Of a DNA stretch of 64,000 nt, positions 40,141-64,000 are shown in pieces; the stretch's first letter is position 1; every line of letters begins with the position of its first letter. The notes under the pieces are model-generated. The model was not told the DNA's origin. It saw nothing but the letters and a program-made list of their open reading frames with translations, and made no database searches. A program made the position numbers and the translations under genes. The stretch is taken from NCBI GenBank assembly GCA_044220955.1, contig JBGAQA010000033.1, positions 1-64,000 on the forward strand, read 5' to 3'. This DNA comes from Sandaracinaceae bacterium (GTDB lineage: Bacteria; Myxococcota_A; Polyangia; Polyangiales; Sandaracinaceae).

Positions 40141-42186
40141 GTGACCGGACACAGCCCCCCCACCTCCAGCCCCAAGGGGCAGCCCGCCGGCATGCGCATC
40201 CTCGATCGCCTGCGCGACGACGGGCGCATCAGCGCGACGCAGTACGAGAGCCTCTACCACCACGCGCGGCGCAGCGGCGAGCCGGTCCAGGAGGCCATCC
40301 TCGACGGCAACGTGATGAGCGAGCAGGACCTGCTCAAGTTCATCGCGGGCATCTACCAGACCCGCTTCGTCTCGACCGAGCGGCTCGCCAAGGCCGACGT
40401 CGACCGCGACATGCTGCGCCTGGTGCCGCGCAAGCTCGCGGAGCGCTACGCGACGGTGCCCGTGCTCTACGACCGTCGGACGCAGTCGCTCTCCATCGTG
40501 GTCGCCGATCTCGAGGAGGACGTCGCCAAGCAGATCCAGATGGTGACGAACGTCCGCGAGGTGAACGCGTACATCGCGCGCCCCGCGTCGATCCGCGCGG
40601 CCATCCGCAAGCACTACGGCGGCGATCCGCAGGCGTTCGCGAGCCTCGGCGGCGGCGGCGTCGGGATCGCCATCGGCGGCGAGGGGGACGGCGGCTTCGG
40701 AGGAGGCGGACGCGGCGGGGGTGACCTCGCGATGGATCTCGAGGGTCTCGGCGGCCTCGGCGGCGGCATCGGCGCGGGCATCGGGACCCCCGCTCCGCCC
40801 AAGGAGGCCAAGCCGGAGCGAAAGCGAGCGGCGATCGATCTCGGCACGCTGGAGATGCCGACCTTCGAGGCCAAGCCGGCCGAGAAGCCGGTGGAGACGA
40901 CGGCGAGCTTGATCGACACCGTCTCGGTGCTGGTGACTCTGCTCGAGCAGGGGCGCGCCGAGCTGCGCGGACACTCGTCGATGGTCGCGCGCATCTGCCG
41001 GCGCGCGGCCGATCGCCTCTCCATGAGCGCCGCCGACGCGGATGCGCTCGAGCTCGCGGCGCTGCTTCACGATCTGGGCAAGCACGCGACGTATCACCTC
41101 ACCGCGTTCAACGTGTCGCGCTTCGACGGCCACCGGATGCAGGCGGACTCGACGTGGAACGCGCCGCTGCGTCTCTTCGAGTCGGCGCGCCTGTCGCCGG
41201 CCGTCGTGGGCATCCTGGGCGGGCTGCACGAGCGCTGGGACGGCAAGGGCCTGCCCAAGAAGGTCGCCGGCGCCGACATCCCGCAGGGCGCGCGCATCCT
41301 GGCGATGGTCGAGACGTTCGCGGACCTGGTCCAGAACCCGAAGAACCCCTACAAGCGCACGCTGACACGCCAAGAGGCGGTCGACGTCATCCGTCAGCTC
41401 GGCGGCACCCTCTTCGATCCCTCCCTCGTGGACGTGCTGCGGCTCGCGGGCGCGGGCGAGGGCACGGTGCCGGGCTCGATCCGCCACCGCGTGCTGCTGG
41501 TCGACCCCGACTCGGCCGAGGCGACGGTCCTCGAGATGCGCTTCGCGGACCAGAACTGGGACGTGCTCGCGGTGGCCGATCGCGCCGCAGCGGAGAAGGC
41601 GCTCGGGCGCGAGCGCTTCGACCTCGTGATCAGCGAGGTCGACCTGGGCGGCGACGACGGCTTCTCGCTCGCGCCCATCGTGAAGGCGAGCACGAAGAGC
41701 CCGAACGTGGCGCTGGTCTACCTGACCAAGCGCGCCGATCGCGACTCCGTGCAGAAGGGCTTCGCGGCCGGCGCGTCGGACTACCTGCAGAAGCCCACGG
41801 CGCCGGACGTCGTCGTCGCCAAGGCCGTGCAGATCGTCGAGAGCGCGGCGAACCAGAAGAAGCGGGCCGCGGGCGGGCTCTCCGGCGCGCTGCGCGACAT
41901 GGGCCTGCCCGAGGTCGTGCAGGTGCTCGGCCAGAGCCGCAAGTCCGGCCAGCTGCGCGTGACGTCGGGCATCGTCTTCGGTGAGATGCACTTCGACGCG
42001 GGCAACATCGTGCACGCGACCTTCGGCACCCAGAAGGGCGACGCGGCGTTCTACTCGATGCTGCGCCTGACCGACGGCGACTTCGCGTTCGACCCGAACG
42101 TGAAGACGACGGAGCGGACGCTGGCGGCCTCGACCGAGAGCCTCCTGCTCGAGGGGATGCGCCGGATCGACGAAGGCATCCTCTGA
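40141..42186 (+). CDS. GSPII_N/MshEN-like + HD-GYP-like + REC + DUF4388 signalling protein (alternative start 40192)
   Basis: VPRKLAERY...P, LLHDLGK, HERWDGKGLP, VLLVD...KP, GALRDMGLPEVVQ...SGQL...LLLEGMRRIDE. Confidence 0.85.
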   Translation: MTGHSPPTSSPKGQPAGMRILDRLRDDGRISATQYESLYHHARRSGEPVQEAILDGNVMSEQDLLKFIAGIYQTRFVSTERLAKADVDRDMLRLVPRKLAERYATVPVLYDRRTQSLSIVVADLEEDVAKQIQMVTNVREVNAYIARPASIRAAIRKHYGGDPQAFASLGGGGVGIAIGGEGDGGFGGGGRGGGDLAMDLEGLGGLGGGIGAGIGTPAPPKEAKPERKRAAIDLGTLEMPTFEAKPAEKPVETTASLIDTVSVLVTLLEQGRAELRGHSSMVARICRRAADRLSMSAADADALELAALLHDLGKHATYHLTAFNVSRFDGHRMQADSTWNAPLRLFESARLSPAVVGILGGLHERWDGKGLPKKVAGADIPQGARILAMVETFADLVQNPKNPYKRTLTRQEAVDVIRQLGGTLFDPSLVDVLRLAGAGEGTVPGSIRHRVLLVDPDSAEATVLEMRFADQNWDVLAVADRAAAEKALGRERFDLVISEVDLGGDDGFSLAPIVKASTKSPNVALVYLTKRADRDSVQKGFAAGASDYLQKPTAPDVVVAKAVQIVESAANQKKRAAGGLSGALRDMGLPEVVQVLGQSRKSGQLRVTSGIVFGEMHFDAGNIVHATFGTQKGDAAFYSMLRLTDGDFAFDPNVKTTERTLAASTESLLLEGMRRIDEGIL

Positions 42187-42226: not shown

Positions 42227-42712
42227 TCAGCGAGGGGTGCGAGCCCTCACCCCGATCACCAGCGCGATCACGAGGGCGAGCCGGAACGCCATGCGCACCG
42301 CGCTCCCGCCGACGTCGAGCGAGGAGACGGTGAGCATCGCGAGCAGGCTGCCGTCGAGCTCCGCGAGCGCGCGGCGGGTCCCGTAGACCTGCCACGCGAG
42401 GCCCACGGGCAGAGCCAGCGCGAGCGCTGCGGCGACGGCGGCGAGCACCGGCGCGGCGAGCGCGCGCGACGCGAGCACGCGCTGCTCGAGGCCGAGGACC
42501 CACGCGAGCACGAACGGCGCGGCGCACGCGAGCGCGACCTCGAGGCCCGCCACCCAGGGCGCGTACGCGTCGTCGAACACGAGCTCGGAGAGCCCGGTGA
42601 CCTGCGCCGTCCCGGCGAGCAGCGCGGGCGACGCCAGCCAGCCGAGGACGAGCCCGAGCAGCGCCAGCGCGCCGAGGACGATCGAGTCGAGGGCCAAGCG
42701 TTCCCAGCGCAC
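42227..42712 (-). CDS. Hypothetical membrane protein
   Basis: About four hydrophobic helices; GTG start inferred. Confidence 0.55.
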   Translation of the reverse strand: MRWERLALDSIVLGALALLGLVLGWLASPALLAGTAQVTGLSELVFDDAYAPWVAGLEVALACAAPFVLAWVLGLEQRVLASRALAAPVLAAVAAALALALPVGLAWQVYGTRRALAELDGSLLAMLTVSSLDVGGSAVRMAFRLALVIALVIGVRARTPR

Positions 42713-42758
42713 GTGCCGAAAAGTGGCCGGTCCGCCGCCGCTTGGCGAGCATCCGGCC

Positions 42759-43865
42759 GTGCGTCGTCTCTTGCTCGCCAGCCTGCTCGTCGCCTGCGGC
42801 CCGGCGGCGCCCGCCGCCACGGCCCCCGCAGCCGCCCCGGTCGCTCCTGCAGCCGAGTCCGTCCCCGCGGCGGCGGCCGCGACGGTCCCCGAGGGCGACG
42901 CCTCGGCGTCGGAAGAGGACGCCGCCACGCCCGCCGCGACGGGCGAGGCCTTCCTCGGCACGGCCGACGCGCCGCTCCTCGAGGTGCTCGCGCACGCCGA
43001 GATCACGCAGATCGAGCGGGGTACCGGCGGCCGCAGCCTCGCCTTCCGGCTCACCTTCGCGGACGGCTCGCGCGGCTACTTCAAGCCGCCCCAGACGTTC
43101 TCAGGCGCTCACTTCTTCGCCGAGATCGCCAGCTACCACCTCGATCGCATGCTCGGCCTCGGGCGCGTGCCCCCGACGATCGGCCGGCGCCTCTCGTGGG
43201 GCCCGCTGCGCGAGGTCGCCGGCGGCGATGCGCGCACCTCGGAGGCGATCGTCGAGCGCGATCACGTCTGCGGCTCGCTCTCGTACTGGGTGCCCGAGCG
43301 CCTCGTGCCCCTCCGGCTCGGCCTGGGGTGGGAGGCGTGGGTGCGCTTCGCCCCGCCGCCCGCGATCTCCCCGTTCCAGCGCGCGCGCGTGTACGCGGCC
43401 CAGGCGGCGGGCTCGCTCGCGGGGCCCGAGCCGACCGAGACGCTGCGCGCGGCGGACGCGCCCGACACGGAGGATCGCGCGGCGGAGCTGTCCGACCTGG
43501 TGCTCTTCGACTACCTGACCGAGAACATCGATCGCTGGGGCGGTGACTACACGAACGTCCGCACGCGCGGCGCAGGCGGACCGCTCGTCTTCCTCGACAA
43601 CGCAGCCGGCTTCATCGCGTCTCACGCCGCGAGCCCGAGCTTCATGGACGCGCGCCTGCACGCGGTGCAGCGCTTCCGTCGCAGCACGGTCGCCGCCATC
43701 CGCGCGCTCTCGATCGACGCGCTCCGTGCCCGTGTCGAGGGCGACGCCTGCGCGCCCATCCTCGACGAGCGGCTCTACGCCCAGCTCGAGGAGCGGCGGG
43801 CCGCGCTCCTGGCCCACGTCGATCGCATGGTCGCCGAGCACGGCGAGGCCGCCCTGCCCTGGTGA
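42759..43865 (+). CDS. Lipoprotein with Fam20C/Four-jointed-like atypical kinase domain
   Basis: LVAC lipobox; GYFKP, AEIASYHLDRMLGLGRVPPTIGR, LFDYLTENIDR, FLDNAAGF. Confidence 0.75.
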   Translation: MRRLLLASLLVACGPAAPAATAPAAAPVAPAAESVPAAAAATVPEGDASASEEDAATPAATGEAFLGTADAPLLEVLAHAEITQIERGTGGRSLAFRLTFADGSRGYFKPPQTFSGAHFFAEIASYHLDRMLGLGRVPPTIGRRLSWGPLREVAGGDARTSEAIVERDHVCGSLSYWVPERLVPLRLGLGWEAWVRFAPPPAISPFQRARVYAAQAAGSLAGPEPTETLRAADAPDTEDRAAELSDLVLFDYLTENIDRWGGDYTNVRTRGAGGPLVFLDNAAGFIASHAASPSFMDARLHAVQRFRRSTVAAIRALSIDALRARVEGDACAPILDERLYAQLEERRAALLAHVDRMVAEHGEAALPW

Positions 43866-43878
43866 GCGCGAGCTCGCG

Positions 43879-45903
43879 TCACGGAACGAGCTCCTGTCCC
43901 TCGCCCCAGTGCACGGTGTAGGGGCGCACCTGCAGGATCACGATGTGGCGATCGGGCCCGGCGACGAGGAACTCCACGTCACACGCGTTCGCGTCGCTGC
44001 CGGGCCAGCGCCGCGTGAGCCAGTCGTGCTCGACCGTGAAGTGCAGGTGGAGCACCGTCAGCGCCTCGTCGAGGTGCAAGAGATCGAGCTCCGTGAGCAG
44101 CTCTGCGCCGCCCGTCCGCGACGAGCGCGAGAGCAGCTCGAACTCCGGCGTCTCCATGTACGTGTAGATGAGGTGCTGCTCGGGCACCTCGTCGCCGGTG
44201 GCGCCGGTGACGCTGCCCCCGAGGGCCTGCACGTTGACGAAGTAGCCCGGGCGCCCCTGGAAGAACGGGTTCGCCGTGATCACGACGCCGTTGGCGAACG
44301 CGCCGTCGACGAAGGGCTCGGCCAGGATGCCCATCGCGACCCGGTCGTGCTGCACGCGGTACCAGTCGCGCTCCTCGAACGCGCCGAGCAGCCACACGCT
44401 CGCCCAGACCTGCCGGATCGCGTCGCCGATCTGCGCGTCCGTCGCGTGGGCCGGCACCACGATCGAGCGGTAGAGGCCCGCGCCCGTGAACCCGGGCAGA
44501 TCCTCGGCGTTCGTCGAGCTGCGGAAGATCCAGCGAGCGTCGCGCGCGCCCGTCTCGATCCGGCGGCGGATCTCGCGGACGAGCGCCGGATCGATCGGCG
44601 CCGCCTCGATCCGTGCGCGCAGGTCGGCGAGGGCCGCGTCACGCGCGTGGCCGTCGGACACGAACGCCGGATCGGCCATCATCGGTGCGAGCGTGCTCGT
44701 GATCGCCGCGCTCTCGAGGTGCGCCACGTAGTAGTGGAAGGGGATCGCGAAGCCGCCCGGCGTGAGGATGCCGTCGAGGCTGGCGGCCTCTCCGAGCTGC
44801 GCGGCCTTGGCCCCGACCGTGCGCGCGTCGCCGAGGCGCAGCTCGTCGAGCGGGCGCAGGCGCGCCTCGCTCGCCTCGATCTGCGGCACGAGCGGCGCGC
44901 TCGGCCTGCGCGACGCCCACGCCGCCTCGGCCTCGCTCCGCGTCGCGGCGCGCAGCGTCCACTCCTGCGGAGCGACCGTCAGCGCGACGAGCTGGCCGTC
45001 CAGGCCCGTGATCGAGGGATCGCCGAGCGCGCTCCGTAGTCCCATGTTCGGCGTCTGCCGCGTCGCGCAGAGCACCGCGATGTGGCCGAGCGGCGCCTGG
45101 AGCTGCGCGCTGATCACGCCGGCGACGACGGGGATCTCGTCGGGCAGCTGCTCGAGAACGAGGATCTGGTCGGGTCGCACGCTGGCGAGCTCGAGCGCCC
45201 CGTGCACCACGCGCAGCGTGCCGAAGGCGGTGCCGTTCGTGAGCGGCTCGTACTCGATGCCCTCGAAGACCTCCTCCGTCGTCACGAGCGGGATCTGTCC
45301 CGGCACCATCGAGATGCTCCGCTCGTGCACGGGCGAGATCGGCCGGAATCGGAGCCGGTCACCCGTCCAGAGCGCCGACGCGAGCTGCCGGTAGAGCGCG
45401 ACGATGCGCGGGCCCGAGAGCGTGTCGCCGCTGACCAGCTCGAGGGTCCAGAGATCGGGGTCGACGTAGTGGACGATCGAGCCCATCTCGAAGCGACGGC
45501 CCTCGGTGCGGTACTCGGTCGCGTTGAACGCGCCGTGGTCCTCGATCGGGTGCCCCGCGCGCGCGAGCCGGTCGCGCGCGAAGAAGTAGTGGATCTCCCA
45601 GCGCTCGGTGTCGACGAACCAGATGCGGCGCTCGTCCGAGAGATCGACGAGGAACTTCACGACCTCGGTGCGCGCGACGGAGGAGGACGTCGGCCGCGCC
45701 GCGAGCGAGCGCCAGGTCGCCTCGTCGGGGATCGCATGCGCGGACTCGAGTCGCGGCGTCGTCGCGACCGCGGTCGGGCTCGAGGCCGTGCCGGCATCGA
45801 GCGCGTCGGGAGGAGGCGGCGCGTGCGTCGTGCCCTCGTGCGGGCGCGTCCCCGCGCAAGCGAGGAGCGCCGAGACCCCGATCGCGAGCAGGACGCGCAG
45901 CAT
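43879..45903 (-). CDS. Lipoprotein with phospho-His swivel and PEP/pyruvate-binding (ATP-grasp) domains; water-dikinase-like
   Basis: LLAC lipobox; QAPLGHIAV, GAKAAQLG, RSSTNAEDLPGFTGAGLY, VWAS, DVEF, LQVRP. Confidence 0.85.
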   Translation of the reverse strand: MLRVLLAIGVSALLACAGTRPHEGTTHAPPPPDALDAGTASSPTAVATTPRLESAHAIPDEATWRSLAARPTSSSVARTEVVKFLVDLSDERRIWFVDTERWEIHYFFARDRLARAGHPIEDHGAFNATEYRTEGRRFEMGSIVHYVDPDLWTLELVSGDTLSGPRIVALYRQLASALWTGDRLRFRPISPVHERSISMVPGQIPLVTTEEVFEGIEYEPLTNGTAFGTLRVVHGALELASVRPDQILVLEQLPDEIPVVAGVISAQLQAPLGHIAVLCATRQTPNMGLRSALGDPSITGLDGQLVALTVAPQEWTLRAATRSEAEAAWASRRPSAPLVPQIEASEARLRPLDELRLGDARTVGAKAAQLGEAASLDGILTPGGFAIPFHYYVAHLESAAITSTLAPMMADPAFVSDGHARDAALADLRARIEAAPIDPALVREIRRRIETGARDARWIFRSSTNAEDLPGFTGAGLYRSIVVPAHATDAQIGDAIRQVWASVWLLGAFEERDWYRVQHDRVAMGILAEPFVDGAFANGVVITANPFFQGRPGYFVNVQALGGSVTGATGDEVPEQHLIYTYMETPEFELLSRSSRTGGAELLTELDLLHLDEALTVLHLHFTVEHDWLTRRWPGSDANACDVEFLVAGPDRHIVILQVRPYTVHWGEGQELVP

Positions 45904-45943
45904 GACCCCGGTTCAGACGTTCGAGCGCGCGCCCGGGTTCACG

Positions 45944-46813
45944 TCAGCCGCTGCAGAAGCCGCTCCGGCACGAGCGCCCGTCGCGACAGCGCCCTCCCGA
46001 GCAGCAGCGCTGGCCTGCCCCGCCACAGGGCTGGCACGAGCCACCGCCCGTCGTCCCGCCGAAGCAGCCGAAGCCGCTGTGGCACTGCCCGCCTGCGCAG
46101 CACGCCTGTCCGTCGCCACCGCACGGGTCACACGTGCCGCCCCCGAGCGGGAAGCCGCCGTTGCAGACCAGCGAGCCGTCGTTGCAGGTGCCGCCGATGC
46201 AGCAGGGCTGGCCTGGGTCGCCGCACATCATGGTGCTGCCGTGACAGCGGCCGTCCGAAGGCGAGCAAGTGCCCGCGTCGCACGCACCGCCCTCGCAGCA
46301 CGGCTGGCCGTCGCCGCCGCAGGGCTCGCAGCTCGCGCCGTTGCAGAGGGCGCCGGGGACGCATGCACCGCCCTCACAGCAGATGTCGCCGACGTCGCCA
46401 CAGAGCGCGCAGGTGCCGCCGAAGCACGTCGAGCCCGGGTTGCAGGTCCCTCCCTCGCAGCAGACCTGATCCGGCTCACCACAGCCCATGCACGCCCCGC
46501 CGACGCAGACGTCGCCGACCGCGCACGCCGGGCAGCAGGCGCCGGCCGGACACACGCAGCTCGTCCCGTCGCAGACGGTTCCGTCCGTGCACGGTGTCGT
46601 GCACCCGGGCATCTGCCACGCATCGACGTCCATACCCGCATCGTCGCGCAGCACGCCGGTGTCGTCTCCGGGCCTGCCCGCGTCGCTCCCCGGGACGACG
46701 GCCGCGTCCTCACCCTCGTGCAGGCGCGCGGGATCGGGGGCGACCAGCGCGCTGCATCCAGCGCTCGCGACCAGCAAGAACGCACCGAGAGCCATCAAGC
46801 TACGAGTACGCAT
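45944..46813 (-). CDS. Cys/Gly-rich repeat lipoprotein
   Basis: SAGC lipobox; about six CG..GQ.CC.GG.C modules. Confidence 0.78.
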   Translation of the reverse strand: MRTRSLMALGAFLLVASAGCSALVAPDPARLHEGEDAAVVPGSDAGRPGDDTGVLRDDAGMDVDAWQMPGCTTPCTDGTVCDGTSCVCPAGACCPACAVGDVCVGGACMGCGEPDQVCCEGGTCNPGSTCFGGTCALCGDVGDICCEGGACVPGALCNGASCEPCGGDGQPCCEGGACDAGTCSPSDGRCHGSTMMCGDPGQPCCIGGTCNDGSLVCNGGFPLGGGTCDPCGGDGQACCAGGQCHSGFGCFGGTTGGGSCQPCGGAGQRCCSGGRCRDGRSCRSGFCSG

Positions 46814-46886
46814 GGGACGATCAGCATAGCAGCAGAGCGACGGCGAACGAACCACACCGGGGACGGGTCTGTTATGGTTCGTGCCC

Positions 46887-47285
46887 ATGCGCACCGTCCG
46901 GATCCTGCTCGTGCTCCTCTCCGTGCTCGCGCTGTGCGCGTGCTCCACGGCCATCGCGCTGACCGAACGCGGCACGACCGTCGCCGAGGTCGGCGCGACG
47001 GGCATGCCCGACGGCTGCACGATGCTCGGCGACGTCTCCATCGGCATCCCGCCGGACGCGGGTCACCCCGGGACGGAAGAAGAGCTCGTCATCCTGATGC
47101 GCAACAAGGCCGGACAGATGGGCGGCACGCACGTGCTCGTCGAGTCGCGCCATCGCCAGGACGACGGCCACGACAGCGCGCACTGGATCGGCCGAGGCCG
47201 AGCCTATCGGTGCGATCCGAGCCAGGCGGCGACGCCTGCCCCCACCGAGCCGGCCGCGTCCGGATCGAGCGGCACGTCGTCCTGA
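46887..47285 (+). CDS. Small lipoprotein (DUF4156-like)
   Basis: LCAC lipobox; C..LGDV, MRNKAGQMGGTHV, GRAYRC. Confidence 0.65.
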   Translation: MRTVRILLVLLSVLALCACSTAIALTERGTTVAEVGATGMPDGCTMLGDVSIGIPPDAGHPGTEEELVILMRNKAGQMGGTHVLVESRHRQDDGHDSAHWIGRGRAYRCDPSQAATPAPTEPAASGSSGTSS

Positions 47286-47328: not shown

Positions 47329-48186
47329 TCACGGCGCGCGCCGCGTGAGATCGACGGTCCCCGGCTCGCGCGGCCCGCTCGGCGACGTGTCCTGGTAGCT
47401 GAGCCCGGTCCCCGAGACGCAGTACGCCCAGTGCTTGCCGCTCACGGTGCCCACGATCTCGTCACCCACGATCGAGTAGCCGTCGGTGTCGTCGATGGTG
47501 TTCGTCTGCCGCGCCTGGCACAGACAGCTGCCGTCGGTCTGCGTCGTGCACGCTGCGTCGGGCGTCGCCATCCGGATGCGCGACTCGATGCCGGTGCAGC
47601 CCCCGACGAAGCTCGCGCAGAGCGCGGGCACGGTCACCAGGACGTCGACCTGCGACTGCGCGACGCGATGGGCCAGCACGCCGTCGAACGTCACGCGCCC
47701 GCGCCCCATGCCCGAGCCGCTCGCGCGCGCGCCGGGGCACATCATGACGGCGCTCAGGTCGACCGCGAAGCAGCCCCCTGACACGTCCCAGGTGCCGACG
47801 ACGTCCCCGCCGCAGGGGGTGAAGGTCGGACAAGGCGTGCCGTCGACGAGCACGGTGAGGGGCGCCCAGCTCGGGTCACCGAGCGCACCGGAGTCGCCGA
47901 AGGGGCTGCCGGCGTCGATCGGAGGCAGCACCGTGCCGACGTCGAGGGGCGCGTCCGGGCCGCCGTCCGCCGGCGATAGGCCCATGTCGGGCGCCACGAA
48001 CGCGTCCGGCGCCGCGAACGCGTCCGGCGCGAACGCGTCCGGCGCGACGGACGCGTCCGATCCCGCGTCCATCGCGGGCGAGCCGGTGTCGAGCTGTGGC
48101 GCCGCATCCTCGGGGAGCGTGGTGCTGCTGCTACAGCCGAGACCCGCCAGACCGGACAAGAGCAAGAAGCCGAACGATCGCCTCAT
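47329..48186 (-). CDS. Cys-containing lipoprotein with APDAF repeats
   Basis: GGAGG RBS; GLGC lipobox; CGGDVVGTW, YCVSG; 15-bp repeat GAACGCGTCCGGCGC three times at 47998-48045. Confidence 0.75.
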   Translation of the reverse strand: MRRSFGFLLLSGLAGLGCSSSTTLPEDAAPQLDTGSPAMDAGSDASVAPDAFAPDAFAAPDAFVAPDMGLSPADGGPDAPLDVGTVLPPIDAGSPFGDSGALGDPSWAPLTVLVDGTPCPTFTPCGGDVVGTWDVSGGCFAVDLSAVMMCPGARASGSGMGRGRVTFDGVLAHRVAQSQVDVLVTVPALCASFVGGCTGIESRIRMATPDAACTTQTDGSCLCQARQTNTIDDTDGYSIVGDEIVGTVSGKHWAYCVSGTGLSYQDTSPSGPREPGTVDLTRRAP

Positions 48187-48237
48187 GGGAACCTCCACGA
48201 ACGGGTGTGTGGAGAGTCGCACACGATCTTTTGCCTG

Positions 48238-50817
<2,580 letters not shown>

Positions 50818-60313: not shown

Positions 60314-61972
60314 TCAGGGGGCGCAGAGCCAGAGACCACCGAGCCAGACGCGGTCGATGGCGCGCGTCTCGTCGCGCAGGAGCGCGGCGATCGTGATGGC
60401 GACGCCCGTCGGCGAGGGCGCGGACGCGATGCGCACGTCCACGATGCGCTCACCGGCACTGGTGGGGTGGACGTCGAGGAGCGGCGGGCAGCCGCCGTCG
60501 CACTCGTCGACGCGCGTCGCGTCGCGACCGACGACGAGGTGCACGAGCCGATCGCTCGCGTCGTCGACCTGCACGACGGCGGACACGCCTGCGCGCACGG
60601 CCGTCGCCGCGACCCTGCGCACCGGGGCCCCGAAGGAGAGCGTCCTGGCCGTCCCGGTCGTGCGGCAGTCCATGAGGCCTCCGGCCGGGCAGACGACCCG
60701 CCACACCGTCACGTCGCTCCCGCTCGGGTAGAGCAGCGTCGCCGCGTCGGGCGCGTCCACGTCGAACACGATCGCGGGCGGACCGGTCGCGCCCGCCGCG
60801 AGCTGCACGAGCGCGAAGTCGCGCGCCGGACGGAGATCCCACGCGACGACGGCTCCCGCACCGTCGTAGGCCGAGAGGAGCGGGCCGTGGGACGCGCTCG
60901 TCTCGAGGTATCCGTCGGGCAGCGTTCCGGCCGTGGGGATCGACGCATACGAGCCGACCCCGATCCCTCGATCGATGTTGCCGAGGACCTGCGTGCTCGT
61001 CGTGCCGTCCTCGTGCGTCTCGCGGAACGCGTACCAGAGGGGCTGCACGTCGCCGAGCGTCGTGAAGGGCGACGCGCCACCGACGACGGCCACACGGCCA
61101 GGCTGCTGGCCGGGGAACATCACCATGGGAGTGATCTCGGAGAGCATCAGCTCGGTCGCGCCTGGCTCGAAGATCCACGCCGACGTCTCGCTTCCCGTCG
61201 CGGGAGGCTCGAGCGCGGCCACGCCGCGGAACACGTCGGCGTCGGTCGCCAGCGCGAACGAGCGCACGCGATCGATCGTCGGCCCACCGGCGACGGGGAA
61301 GACGGCTCGAGGGTCGGCCAGAGCGTCGGCGGCGATCTCGACCAGGCGGAGCGACCGGTCCGGCGCTCCCTCGAGGTACCCGACCCACGCATACGGCACG
61401 CTCGCGCTCGCGCGCTCCGCGAGGCCGAGCTGTCCGACGACGAAGCCGTCCACCGACTGAGGTGAGACGAACCCCCCGAGGACGGTCGGGGGGACGAGCG
61501 CGAGGCCGGAGGTGCCGTGACCCGCCCCGAGGACGGCATCGAGCAGGGCCGCGTGCCCGCGCGCGTCACACTGCGATCCGCCTCCGTCGACGGGCGGCAT
61601 GCCGGCGTCGTCGCCGGAGCGAGCCTCGACGCAGGTCGTCGCCTCGCACGTGCCGCCGCGACAGTCGGCGCTCGTGGTGCACTCCGTGCGGCACTGGCCG
61701 CCCTGGCAGCGCAAGGGCGCCGCGCAGATCGCCTCCGTGCATCGCTCCTCGACGTCGAGCGTGCAGACACCGCCGCCCACGGACGCGATGCAGCGCAGAC
61801 CGGCTGCGCAGTCCCGCGCGCTCGTGCACTCGCTACGACAGCGGCCGTACGTGCACGTCAGCGGCGTGGCGCAGTCGGAAGGGCGCGCGCACGCAGCGCC
61901 CACGGCTGCGGTCGGCTGGCACGCGCACAGCGCCAACGAGAGGAGGGGCACCACGACGCCGACGCGCGACAC
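60314..61972 (-). CDS. Lipoprotein with N-terminal Cys-rich repeats
   Basis: LCAC lipobox; C...DC...L.C..G.C modules, then a beta-rich region. Confidence 0.72.
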   Translation of the reverse strand: MSRVGVVVPLLSLALCACQPTAAVGAACARPSDCATPLTCTYGRCRSECTSARDCAAGLRCIASVGGGVCTLDVEERCTEAICAAPLRCQGGQCRTECTTSADCRGGTCEATTCVEARSGDDAGMPPVDGGGSQCDARGHAALLDAVLGAGHGTSGLALVPPTVLGGFVSPQSVDGFVVGQLGLAERASASVPYAWVGYLEGAPDRSLRLVEIAADALADPRAVFPVAGGPTIDRVRSFALATDADVFRGVAALEPPATGSETSAWIFEPGATELMLSEITPMVMFPGQQPGRVAVVGGASPFTTLGDVQPLWYAFRETHEDGTTSTQVLGNIDRGIGVGSYASIPTAGTLPDGYLETSASHGPLLSAYDGAGAVVAWDLRPARDFALVQLAAGATGPPAIVFDVDAPDAATLLYPSGSDVTVWRVVCPAGGLMDCRTTGTARTLSFGAPVRRVAATAVRAGVSAVVQVDDASDRLVHLVVGRDATRVDECDGGCPPLLDVHPTSAGERIVDVRIASAPSPTGVAITIAALLRDETRAIDRVWLGGLWLCAP

Positions 61973-62552: not shown

Positions 62553-64000
62553 GTGCCTTCCCTCGCCCGATGGGTCCCGGCGCTCGCGCTGCTCGTGCTC
62601 TCGAGCGCGTGCGGGGCACGCCCGGCCCACCCTGCGCGGCCCGATCACGCCGAGGCGATCGCCGACGAGGCCATCTGGTCGTCGCTCGCCGCGCGGCTCG
62701 AGGCGCGAACGGTCGCGCACGTCGAGGAGGTGAAGTTCGTGATCGACCTCGGGGATCGCGACATCGCGGGTGCTCCGCACGTCTACTTCCTCGATTCGAG
62801 TCGATACGACTCGCACTACGACTTCGCGCGCGCTCACCTCGACCGCGAGGGAGGGCGCATCGCCGATCCGATGGCGTTCTACGTCTCCGAGTACCGGCGG
62901 CCGGAGCGGCGCTTCTGGCTCGGCTCGCTGGTGCGCTACCGCGACCAGGATCGCTTCGTCCTGGAGATCCTGGCGGGAGACACGATGAGCGGCGAGGCGC
63001 TGCGCGCGTGCTTCGCGCTCGTCCGCTCGCGCGTGTACTTCGGCTCGGCGCTCGCGTTCCATCCCATCTCGGACCAGCACGAGCGAACGCTCGCCACGAT
63101 GTCGGGCGAGCCGCTGCCGGTGCTGCGCGACGAGGCGCTGCACGCCGGCTGGAGCTACGAGCCTCTCTTGCAGGGCGTGGCCTACGGCTACGTGCGGCTC
63201 GTGCGCGGCCGGCTCGACCCGGCGAGCGTCCGACCGAGCCAGATCCTCGTGCTCGAGGAGGTGCCCGACGACGTGCCCGTCTGCGCGGCGATGATCACCT
63301 CGCGCTTCCAGGCGCCGCTCGCGCACGTGGCGCTGCTCAGCGCGAACCGCGGGACGCCGGACGCCGCCGTCCGCGATGCGATCGAGGACCCGCGCTTCGA
63401 GGCGCTCGAGGGGCGGCTCGCGCGCCTCGTCGTCGGCGAGAGCGAGCTCTCGATCGAGGAGGCGACGCTCGCGGACGCCGAGGCGTTCTGGGCGGGGATC
63501 CGCCCGAGCGAGCGCTTCTCTCCGCGGCTCGACGAGAGCGTGGCGCGCCTCGTACCGCTCGCCGAGCTGCGCACGGACGACGTCGACTTCGCGGGCGCGA
63601 AGGCCGCGAACCTGGGCGAGGCGGCGAGCCTGCCGGGCGTGGAGGTGCCGCCGGGCTTCGTCGTACCGGTGCGCTACTTCGTGGAGCACCTCGCAAGGAG
63701 CGGCCTCCGCCCCGAGATCGACGCGATGCTCGGCGACCCCGCGTTCGCGGCCGACGCGGGCGTGCGCGCGACGCGGCTCGAGGCGATCCGCGCGCGCATC
63801 GCCGCCGCGCCGGTCGACCCGGCGCTCGTGACGCGCGTGCGGGACGCGATCGCGGCGCTCGGGGCGAGCGGGAGGCTTCGCTTCCGGTCGAGCACGAACG
63901 CCGAGGATCTACCGGGCTTCAACGGCGCCGGGCTCTACAGCTCCGCGATCGTCGCGCACGGTGGGGGCGACGCCGAGGTCGCGAGCGCGCTCGCTCGCGT
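62553..64000 (+). CDS. Second water-dikinase-like lipoprotein (partial; runs off the window)
   Basis: Not in the ORF track. Manual translation gives MPSLARWVPALALLVLSSAC, VKFVIDL, QAPLAHVAL, GAKAANLG, RSSTNAEDLPGFNGAGLY; paralogue of 43879-45903. Confidence 0.85.
   Translation, partial: MPSLARWVPALALLVLSSACGARPAHPARPDHAEAIADEAIWSSLAARLEARTVAHVEEVKFVIDLGDRDIAGAPHVYFLDSSRYDSHYDFARAHLDREGGRIADPMAFYVSEYRRPERRFWLGSLVRYRDQDRFVLEILAGDTMSGEALRACFALVRSRVYFGSALAFHPISDQHERTLATMSGEPLPVLRDEALHAGWSYEPLLQGVAYGYVRLVRGRLDPASVRPSQILVLEEVPDDVPVCAAMITSRFQAPLAHVALLSANRGTPDAAVRDAIEDPRFEALEGRLARLVVGESELSIEEATLADAEAFWAGIRPSERFSPRLDESVARLVPLAELRTDDVDFAGAKAANLGEAASLPGVEVPPGFVVPVRYFVEHLARSGLRPEIDAMLGDPAFAADAGVRATRLEAIRARIAAAPVDPALVTRVRDAIAALGASGRLRFRSSTNAEDLPGFNGAGLYSSAIVAHGGGDAEVASALAR

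Follow-up and report, generated by a model that had tools for sequence, protein, structure and literature searches.

Fam20 kinases are presented, in passages of two reviews, as an animal family (PMC7948968; PMC3696010), and sections of the published account of the potato glucan water dikinase StGWD1 describe a substrate-side domain followed by a His domain and, at the C-terminus, a PPDK/RPH-type ATP-binding domain (PMC13553574). In the full-text literature, a scope that leaves out most subscription journals and in which some papers were judged by title or abstract, we found no description of bacterial Fam20 proteins or of exported PPDK_N proteins. Here we describe two adjacent genes that recall these systems. 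They lie in a stretch of 64,000 nucleotides (the window) of a Sandaracinaceae bacterium (GenBank assembly GCA_044220955.1, contig JBGAQA010000033.1), which is contig C228 of a metagenome-assembled genome of 7.5 Mb and 88% completeness; named homologues likewise point to Sandaracinaceae, Myxococcota. Gene A encodes a lipobox-bearing Fam20-type kinase, and gene B a lipobox-bearing protein with a swivelling His domain and an ATP-grasp domain. An initial annotation of the window had proposed that the two form a functional pair. We consider it probable that A and B are two independent exported, membrane-tethered phosphotransferases, adjacent via genus-level synteny and not through joint function.

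The description of A as a Fam20-like kinase in the initial annotation was upheld by both sequence and structure searches. The A protein scored 40.9 bits against the Pfam family Fam20C (PF06702; cut-off 26.8) over residues 227-363, and a six-frame search of its own genome likewise placed it above the cut-off. When all PDB sequences were searched with phmmer, human Fam20C was the best match (E 3.5e-11, ~290 residues), and all six matches at E<=1 were Fam20 proteins. The AlphaFold2 model of A had a predicted local distance difference test score (pLDDT) of 85.4, and the 15 top matches listed for it by Foldseek, among ranks 1-28, were all Fam20 structures (Fam20C, Fam20A, Fam20B, and hydra and worm Fam20), with E values from 2.4e-16 to 8.3e-11 and template modelling (TM) scores of about 0.5-0.6. 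These were followed by PI4KII at 3.8e-6 and Helicobacter CtkA at ~1e-4. As judged from sequence and model, A is a true member of the Fam20-type kinase family with a predicted Fam20 fold.

The A sequence aligned residue by residue with the Fam20C motifs FKP, AEIAxxHLDR, NxDR (NMDR) and LDN. In a family alignment of 51 sequences, K109 (YFKP), E122 (AEIA), D129-R130 (HLDR), D258-R259-W260 (NIDRW), N266 and D280 (LDN) were invariant. K109 corresponds to the beta3 Lys, E122 to the canonical alphaC-type Glu (equivalent to ceFam20 Glu218), D258 to the catalytic Asp (H/YRD equivalent) and D280 to the metal-binding Asp (DFG equivalent). With E122 kept, the A kinase is probably, though not certainly, active. 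Mature A contains two Cys only, neither of them invariant or nearly so in the family alignment. The genome also carries a second Fam20-like gene (C227:56349-56732; L002 1486-2460, - strand), which is 32% identical to A over the C-half and, at 28.9 bits, above the Pfam cut-off; its signal peptide is of the cleavable type, and Arg replaces the FKP lysine (AFRPE).

The B protein gave a single Pfam match, to PPDK_N (residues 362-665, E 3.2e-24), and its AlphaFold2 model reached a pLDDT of 89.4. H274 in the QAPLGH motif, K366, R461-S462-S463, E644, Q658 and R660 were invariant in 54 sequences; the ATP-utilising motifs reported as intact in both genes are therefore conserved throughout both alignments. 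The ~165-residue N-domain, the presumed substrate site, has its own set of invariant charged residues (R78, K83, D87, R92, H105, R136, R137, D148, E155 and D160). Residues 45-350 and 195-302, searched separately against Pfam at E values up to 10, matched no family, and a profile of the N-half of B found no match among all PDB sequences at E up to 10. Whole-model structure searches of the PDB returned lists filled by ATP-grasp proteins and barely probed residues 50-216. In the ESM Atlas, the best named match for residues 48-216 was an algal cluster bearing GWD1_pHisD, at a score of 0.76 that shuffled sequences often reach.

Two described enzymes were tried as identities for B and rejected. Against the best NCBIfam model for phosphoenolpyruvate (PEP) synthase, B reached 73 bits where the cut-off is 598, and the PEP/pyruvate TIM barrel of PEP synthase and PPDK was absent from both the Pfam scan and the model. 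As a rifampin phosphotransferase (RPH) it reached 64 bits against 999 (NCBIfam), and the domain order in B is N-domain, His domain, ATP-grasp. Both NCBIfam matches fall on the region also recognised by PPDK_N. The term dikinase in the initial annotation thus holds for the ATP-grasp and swivelling His domains but does not extend to a PEP synthase or PPDK, since B, by sequence and model, contains the PPDK_N ATP-grasp and the swivelling His domain with no PEP/pyruvate domain. B appears to be a new architectural, exported variant of the swivelling-His dikinases with a new N-terminal domain.

Both proteins start with the annotated lipoboxes, LVAC in A and LLAC in B, and these signals are kept across homologues. 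The N-terminus of A (VRRLLLASLLVAC, followed by G; Cys13) combines a basic RR, the hydrophobic stretch LLLASL and the lipobox, and that of B (MLRVLLAIGVSALLAC, followed by A; Cys16) a basic R, the hydrophobic stretch VLLAIGVSA and the lipobox. The lipoprotein pattern of basic n-region, hydrophobic h-region and lipobox ([LVI][ASTVI][GAS]C) was found in A, B and the proteins of the congeners, and in both A and B a Pro/Ala-rich, low-confidence tether follows the lipobox Cys. The database entry P0122, which shares 99% identity with A, has an identical start. Among A homologues, 49 of 121 passed the strict lipobox rule and 103 of 119 had a hydrophobic N-terminus; most of the 16 that failed the hydrophobicity rule still end in a lipobox of the ...TAVGC type. 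Among the B homologues listed, 61 of 120 passed the strict rule and most others have a classical AxA-type signal before SAHAIPDE, and a hydrophobic N-terminal segment was present in 112 of the 115 homologues of at least 600 amino acids. As a control for the hydrophobicity rule, 1090 of 3395 (32%) of a crude open reading frame (ORF) set of this genome passed it. In homologues from several phyla the signals precede the conserved mature start at a constant place (FLGEPDAPRI in A, SAHAIPDE in B). Export thus appears to be a conserved trait of both families, and we infer that A and B are exported by Sec, lipidated and membrane-tethered, facing the periplasm or the surface. By a crude scan of the genome, 509 of its 3686 ORFs begin with a lipobox-like sequence, and among 3462 pairs of adjacent ORFs there are 87 in which both do; two neighbouring lipobox genes are not rare in this genome.

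We then searched a family profile, built from residues 48-345 of B (the N-half) in 22 sequences, over 1.84 billion representatives. It matched 2098 clusters (50% identity) at E<=1e-3, 1350 at <=1e-10 and 318 at <=1e-30. Among the B-family representatives listed, 105 look full-length, and 75 of these pass the strict signal rule; several further full-length ones have a lipobox without the basic residue, and about a dozen are signal-less and start with MG. Two of these signal-less members belong to the protist Anaeramoeba. P0275, P0379 and P0407 were considered together with the other MG-starting representatives; besides the Anaeramoeba proteins, further signal-less ones start with MG and have low-complexity, AT-rich-looking N-termini, which suggests eukaryotic or intracellular-bacterial copies.

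Pfam scans of 24 longer B-family members detected a Lamin Tail Domain (LTD) in 12, a CarboxypepD_reg-like domain in five, a Por_Secre_tail-like segment in three, and fn3 and Calx-beta in one protein of 3227 amino acids, all of them domain types of extracellular proteins. Forms with an N-terminal LTD are about 950-1030 amino acids long (P0301, P0326, P0334, P0346, P0347, P0351, P0362 and P0372); four others (P0311, P0318, P0348 and P0382) combine an LTD with the B N-domain and the His part, with PPDK_N undetected by Pfam. The named members span Myxococcota, Verrucomicrobiota, Bacteroidota, Gammaproteobacteria, Planctomycetota and a Micavibrio metagenome-assembled genome, and the close relatives include Sandaracinaceae/Polyangiales, Opitutaceae (Lacunisphaera, Oleiharenicola, Nibricoccus), Cellvibrionaceae, Steroidobacteraceae, Planctomycetota, the Micavibrio genome and Prolixibacteraceae. 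Named homologues are present in Sandaracinus amylolyticus, which is culturable. Databases label the relatives of B as hypothetical, 'PEP/pyruvate-binding domain-containing', 'phosphoenolpyruvate synthase' or 'rifampicin phosphotransferase'. The name 'PEP/pyruvate-binding domain-containing protein' is misleading, because B has no PEP/pyruvate domain, its His domain precedes the ATP-grasp domain, and its scores lie far under the family cut-offs. The large exported family of B seems undescribed. The taxa that hold it include many polysaccharide degraders and some predators, which, together with the signal-less protist copies, would fit a widely available polymer acceptor or action inside other cells.

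The initial annotation had stated in advance that an absence of linkage or co-occurrence among related genomes would count against the pairing. We surveyed 60 relatives and the window's own genome, in tallies that include an unpublished genome (G026). Of these 61 genomes, 59 had A-like and 39 had B-like matches (58/60 and 38/60 without G026). Besides the window's genome, A and B were neighbours in all five congeners (G001-G005) and in no other surveyed genome. They are convergent and ~30 bp apart in G003 and G004, and convergent at ~1.5 kb in G001; in G002 and G005 the inversion of A alone makes the two co-directional, B and then A, 111-184 bp apart. The single inversion of A in place (G002, L066 3561-4631; G005, L065 10112-11071) lies between the gene for an HD-GYP regulator and B. 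The whole block, consisting of a NAD kinase-like gene (nadK), the HD-GYP response regulator, A, B, a Cys-rich gene and a small lipoprotein gene, is syntenic in four of the five congeners, and in G001 only A and B of this block were recovered. Since the whole neighbourhood is syntenic within the genus, the shared adjacency carries no information beyond common ancestry.

To look beyond the genus, we compared 19 window proteins by tblastn with the 8 kb on either side of A at 15 loci and of B at 20 loci; the query gene itself was the sole match, and no locus had the partner or another window neighbour within this distance. In the genomes outside the genus that carry A and B on one contig (G007, G012, G014, G021, G023 and G053), 107-600 kb separate the two. 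When 200 genomes were sampled evenly across the phylum (A orthologue at E<=1e-30, B-type gene at E<=1e-20), A was present in 17, all from the window's order, and a B-type gene in 67 from many families, and both were found only in G113; 16 of the 17 A-bearing genomes lack a B-type gene, and 66 of the 67 B-bearing genomes lack A. The survey thus found no linkage beyond the genus and both genes in one of 200 genomes, which argues against the proposed pairing. As far as comparative genomics can tell, the two-gene module is not real.

As independent enzymes, the two proteins would work as follows. A would be exported by the Sec route and lipidated at Cys13, with a tether of roughly 50 residues holding the kinase domain. 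ATP-Mg would be bound through K109, E122, N266 and D280, and D258 would serve as the catalytic base in the transfer of the gamma-phosphate to a hydroxyl of a protein or glycan in the envelope or surroundings. B would have a three-part body composed of a substrate-side domain, a swivelling His domain and an ATP-grasp domain. The ATP-grasp domain would move the beta,gamma-pyrophosphate of ATP onto His274 with release of AMP, the gamma-phosphate would pass to water, and the His domain would then swing to the N-domain, where the beta-phosphate could be handed to an acceptor bound by the invariant Arg, Lys, Asp and His residues of that domain.

Several observations weigh against this picture of two independent exported phosphotransferases. 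The genome has only 2 Fam20-like and 2 B-type genes among ~3,700 crudely called ORFs (an undercount), the chance adjacency of A and B is ~0.1% a priori in an estimate that is post hoc and comes from one genus only, and the adjacency is retained in all five congeners despite the inversion of A in two. The export call rests on motifs and on their conservation in homologues. We know of no ATP source outside the cytoplasm for these organisms. The hand-over of the beta-phosphate by B is conjecture, because the N-domain has no assigned fold or substrate. A, in turn, has a 9-residue deletion just before the AEIA helix, which spans the ceFam20 Glu213-type acidic residue of Fam20C. In a published account, the acidic residue at this position (ceFam20 Glu213, hydra Asp152) pairs with Lys, and a Gln there contributes to the pseudokinase status of Fam20A (PMC5865150); because the deletion removes the Glu213-type residue, activity of A is not assured.

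An alternative is that, in this genus, A and B work together as an extracytoplasmic phosphorylation module, with B priming or supplying a phosphorylated substrate or nucleotide for the Fam20-type kinase, or with both enzymes modifying one envelope polymer. ATP released from lysed prey had been suggested by the initial annotation as a possible supply. In addition to the neighbourhood kept in the window and in 5/5 congeners despite the local inversion of A, both proteins appear to be exported and both ATP-using, and co-transcription is possible in G002 and G005. In the window, however, the genes are convergent and cannot be read into one transcript, as the initial annotation had itself pointed out; the synteny in the genus spans the entire neighbourhood and not the pair alone; and the absence of linkage at the 35 loci outside the genus, together with the presence of both A and B in a single genome of the phylum sample, leaves a module of this kind quite improbable. 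That one or both proteins are exported but carry out no ATP-driven phosphotransfer in the envelope is unlikely, although less remote. Here a pseudoenzyme or binding protein, another phosphate donor, or action confined to a second cell that receives the protein (prey reached by vesicles, for instance) and in which ATP is plentiful, would be involved. The prevailing view is that the periplasm lacks ATP, A is without the Glu213-type acidic residue whose loss marks the pseudokinase Fam20A, close B homologues are found in the Micavibrio genome, Sandaracinaceae, Opitutaceae and Cellvibrionaceae, and the Anaeramoeba members have no signal peptide, indicating that the chemistry would also work in the cytosol. 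Against this stand the canonical ATP- and metal-binding residues, whose invariance in both families is unexpected for pseudoenzymes; secretion-system or vesicle-targeting signals were not identified in A or B.

It is very improbable that the export signals are artefacts of wrongly chosen starts, with both proteins cytoplasmic and B a truncated PEP synthase-like enzyme. The reading frame of A does stay open upstream of its start, back to 42597, so that alternative starts are possible, and relatives of B have been automatically annotated as phosphoenolpyruvate synthase or rifampicin phosphotransferase. Such artefacts would not be expected to place signal peptides at a constant distance before FLGEPDAPRI and SAHAIPDE in several phyla, nor to give the excess of hydrophobic N-termini in homologues of A and B over the control ORFs, and the scores of B against both enzyme families, with the PEP/pyruvate domain absent, argue against a truncated enzyme. 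We therefore retain two independent exported phosphotransferases as the probable explanation of the locus.

The features of the locus are given in Table 1. The coordinates, strands and stops of the convergent pair, annotated as 13 bp apart, were confirmed: A and B lie tail-to-tail, with stops at 43863-43865 (A) and 43879-43881 (B).

Table 1. Positions of the two genes, their predicted parts and associated features in the window
Feature	Position	Strand	Description	Basis
Gene A	42759..43865	+	lipobox-bearing Fam20-type kinase; GTG start, TGA stop, 368 aa (amino acids)	ORF and translation
A predicted signal peptide, lipobox LVAC	42759..42797	+	Cys13 at 42795-42797	sequence
A tether, residues 14-65	42798..42953	+	Pro/Ala-rich, predicted disordered	pLDDT 46-55 over residues 1-60
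A kinase domain, residues 66-368	42954..43862	+		conserved columns and Fam20C motif alignment
A key residues	K109 43083-43085; E122 43122-43124; D258 43530-43532; N266 43554-43556; D280 43596-43598	+		
Inter-stop gap	43866..43878	.	13 bp; 12-nt (nucleotide) palindrome CGCGAGCTCGCG at 43867-43878 occupies all except the first base	
Gene B	43879..45903	-	lipobox-bearing swivelling-His / ATP-grasp dikinase-like protein; ATG start, 674 aa	ORF
B ATP-grasp nucleotide-binding domain, residues 345-674	43882..44871	-	K366, R461, E467, E644, Q658, R660	
B swivelling phosphohistidine-type domain, residues 217-333	44905..45255	-	invariant His274 (45082-45084) opens a short helix	
B N-domain, residues 50-216	45256..45756	-	mixed alpha/beta, highly conserved	pLDDT 85-98
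B tether, residues 17-49	45757..45855	-		pLDDT <50 for 18-44; 35-41 for 21-40
B predicted signal peptide, lipobox LLAC, residues 1-16	45856..45903	-	Cys16 at 45856-45858	sequence
Cys-rich repeat lipoprotein gene	45944..46813	-	directly upstream of B, 40-bp gap	ORF, start MRTRSLMALGAFLLVASAGC
Paralogue B2	62625..64000, on to contig position 64478 (L004 865-3363)	+	49% identical to B	

A scan of 42400-46200, which includes the gap between A and B, found no terminator- or promoter-type sites, and the fold of the gap did not surpass that of shuffled sequences (z -0.26). The G+C content is 0.71-0.77 over the A/B region, and a compositional break is absent. The Cys-rich gene upstream of B, which may be co-transcribed with it, contains numerous CG..G..CC.GG.C units and adjoins B in every congener except G001; a Pfam scan assigned it to no family. 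A sludge metatranscriptome (one run; 7% of sampled words) yielded two 100% identical contigs at a depth of 2-3, for which DNA carry-over is possible. One lies in B (45047-45273) and the other in the Cys-rich gene (46445-46630), with none on A, and they indicate neither expression nor silence. The paralogue B2 lies on the contig of B at a distance of 17 kb; it shows a lipobox (LSSAC), the conserved His motif APLAH and a PPDK_N match, and counterparts are present in 5/5 congeners (matches at 45-49% identity).

On the other side of the pair, just upstream of A, a large response regulator gene (40141-42186, +) combines MshEN, an HD-GYP-type HD_5, a receiver and DUF4388, and is kept at this place in the genus. 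Divergent from A lies a possible small membrane-protein ORF (42227-42721, -) with no Pfam family; its only counterpart, 34% identical, is beside A in G004, and it failed the codon-position G+C filter and may not be a gene. Lipobox-like starts were also seen at 46881-47285 (+), 47329-48222 (-) and 60314-61972 (-), clustered around B. Pfam assigned no family to 46881-47285 or 47329-48222, both of which lie between B and gyrB (48238-50754).

Neighbours were also recorded at the loci outside the genus. Agmatine deiminase (PAD_porph) occurs at 7 of the 15 A loci and a CN_hydrolase (N-carbamoylputrescine-amidase-like) at 6 of 15. At six loci (L069, L073, L076, L079, L081 and L082) the agmatine deiminase gene is on the same strand, directly downstream of the A orthologue, and at L080 a fragment lies ~2.5 kb off; further recurrent neighbours of A orthologues are a Fic protein and a DUF2079 membrane protein. 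The agmatine deiminase cluster may reflect old synteny or may be a functional hint towards polyamines. The 20 B loci of the Sandaracinaceae family have Ser/Thr kinases, a Big_7 protein, UPRTase and uncharacterised 650-amino acid proteins as recurrent neighbours. The genome collection provided 42 B loci, 12 of them from other lineages, and Pfam scans of the neighbours at nine of those 12 found hybrid histidine kinases, several peptidases, a single GHL6-like hydrolase and, at three related loci of the Opitutaceae type, GlcNAc-2-epimerase-like genes. No partner of B was shared throughout the 20 family loci and the nine other-lineage loci scanned, and therefore no substrate can be inferred from the neighbours.

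The A/B pair is thus not a new system, and the wider meaning of the locus lies in the two families. A is part of an exported bacterial Fam20 branch. We propose, tentatively and with more doubt than confidence, that B belongs to a large unrecognised family of Sec-exported swivelling-His dikinases that spend ATP outside the cytoplasm on an extracellular or envelope polymer. If B is active outside the cell, it would represent a new class of extracellular phosphorylating enzyme; together with the adjacent exported Fam20-type kinase, this would mean that bacteria commonly, and not just exceptionally, use ATP for phosphorylation in their envelope or surroundings. Exported ATP users are odd because ATP is generally regarded as scarce outside the cell, and each gene raises the question of the role and the ATP source of an ATP-dependent phosphotransferase at the outer face of the inner membrane of bacteria.

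In comparison with the animal Fam20 proteins (the Golgi casein kinase Fam20C, the xylosylkinase Fam20B and the pseudokinase Fam20A), A has the FKP Lys, AEIAxxHLDR, NxDR and LDN in common, finds its nearest folds among them and, like them, would enter a secretory route. Animal Fam20 proteins are described as Cys-rich in part of one review (PMC3696010), whereas A lacks a conserved-cysteine signature. A also differs in being bacterial and lipoprotein-anchored, in a structural-alignment identity of about 20-23%, and, relative to Fam20C, in the deletion that takes out the Glu213(ce)-type segment. The CotH spore-coat kinases, the comparator named in the initial annotation, resemble A as atypical bacterial kinases outside the vegetative cytoplasm. 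A is not a CotH protein: CotH had no match anywhere in this genome and was absent among the listed fold matches of A. Lamin Tail Domains are frequent in bacterial CotH proteins and also occur in some members of the B family.

PEP synthase and PPDK share with B the PPDK_N ATP-grasp (the GxKxxxLxE Lys, RSS, E...Q.R) and the swivelling His domain, but B has no PEP/pyruvate TIM barrel, and its His domain stands before, not after, the ATP-grasp domain. RPH, which was compared with B along with HpeI-type ATP-binding subunits and is not known to have a signal peptide, is ordered as ATP-grasp, rifampin-binding domain and His domain, in contrast to the N-domain, His domain and ATP-grasp of B. The domain order of B is identical to that of the plant glucan water dikinase GWD1, in which, according to sections of the published account, the catalytic His also lies on a short helix (PMC13553574). 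B differs from GWD1 in having no CBM45 domains and an N-domain of ~165 residues as compared to the 440-residue GWD central domain, and in its predicted export and lipid anchor, while GWD works inside plastids; no starch-binding CBM (CBM45 or CBM20) or GWD1_pHisD was matched in B by Pfam at E<=0.1 (whole protein) or E<=10 (residues 45-350). The likeness between B and GWD is one of architecture and presumed mechanism, with homology shown only for the shared dikinase parts. If the tentative view of B as an extracellular dikinase is true, B would resemble the plant enzyme in its action as well: glucan water dikinase phosphorylates the surface of starch and thereby makes it accessible to hydrolases.

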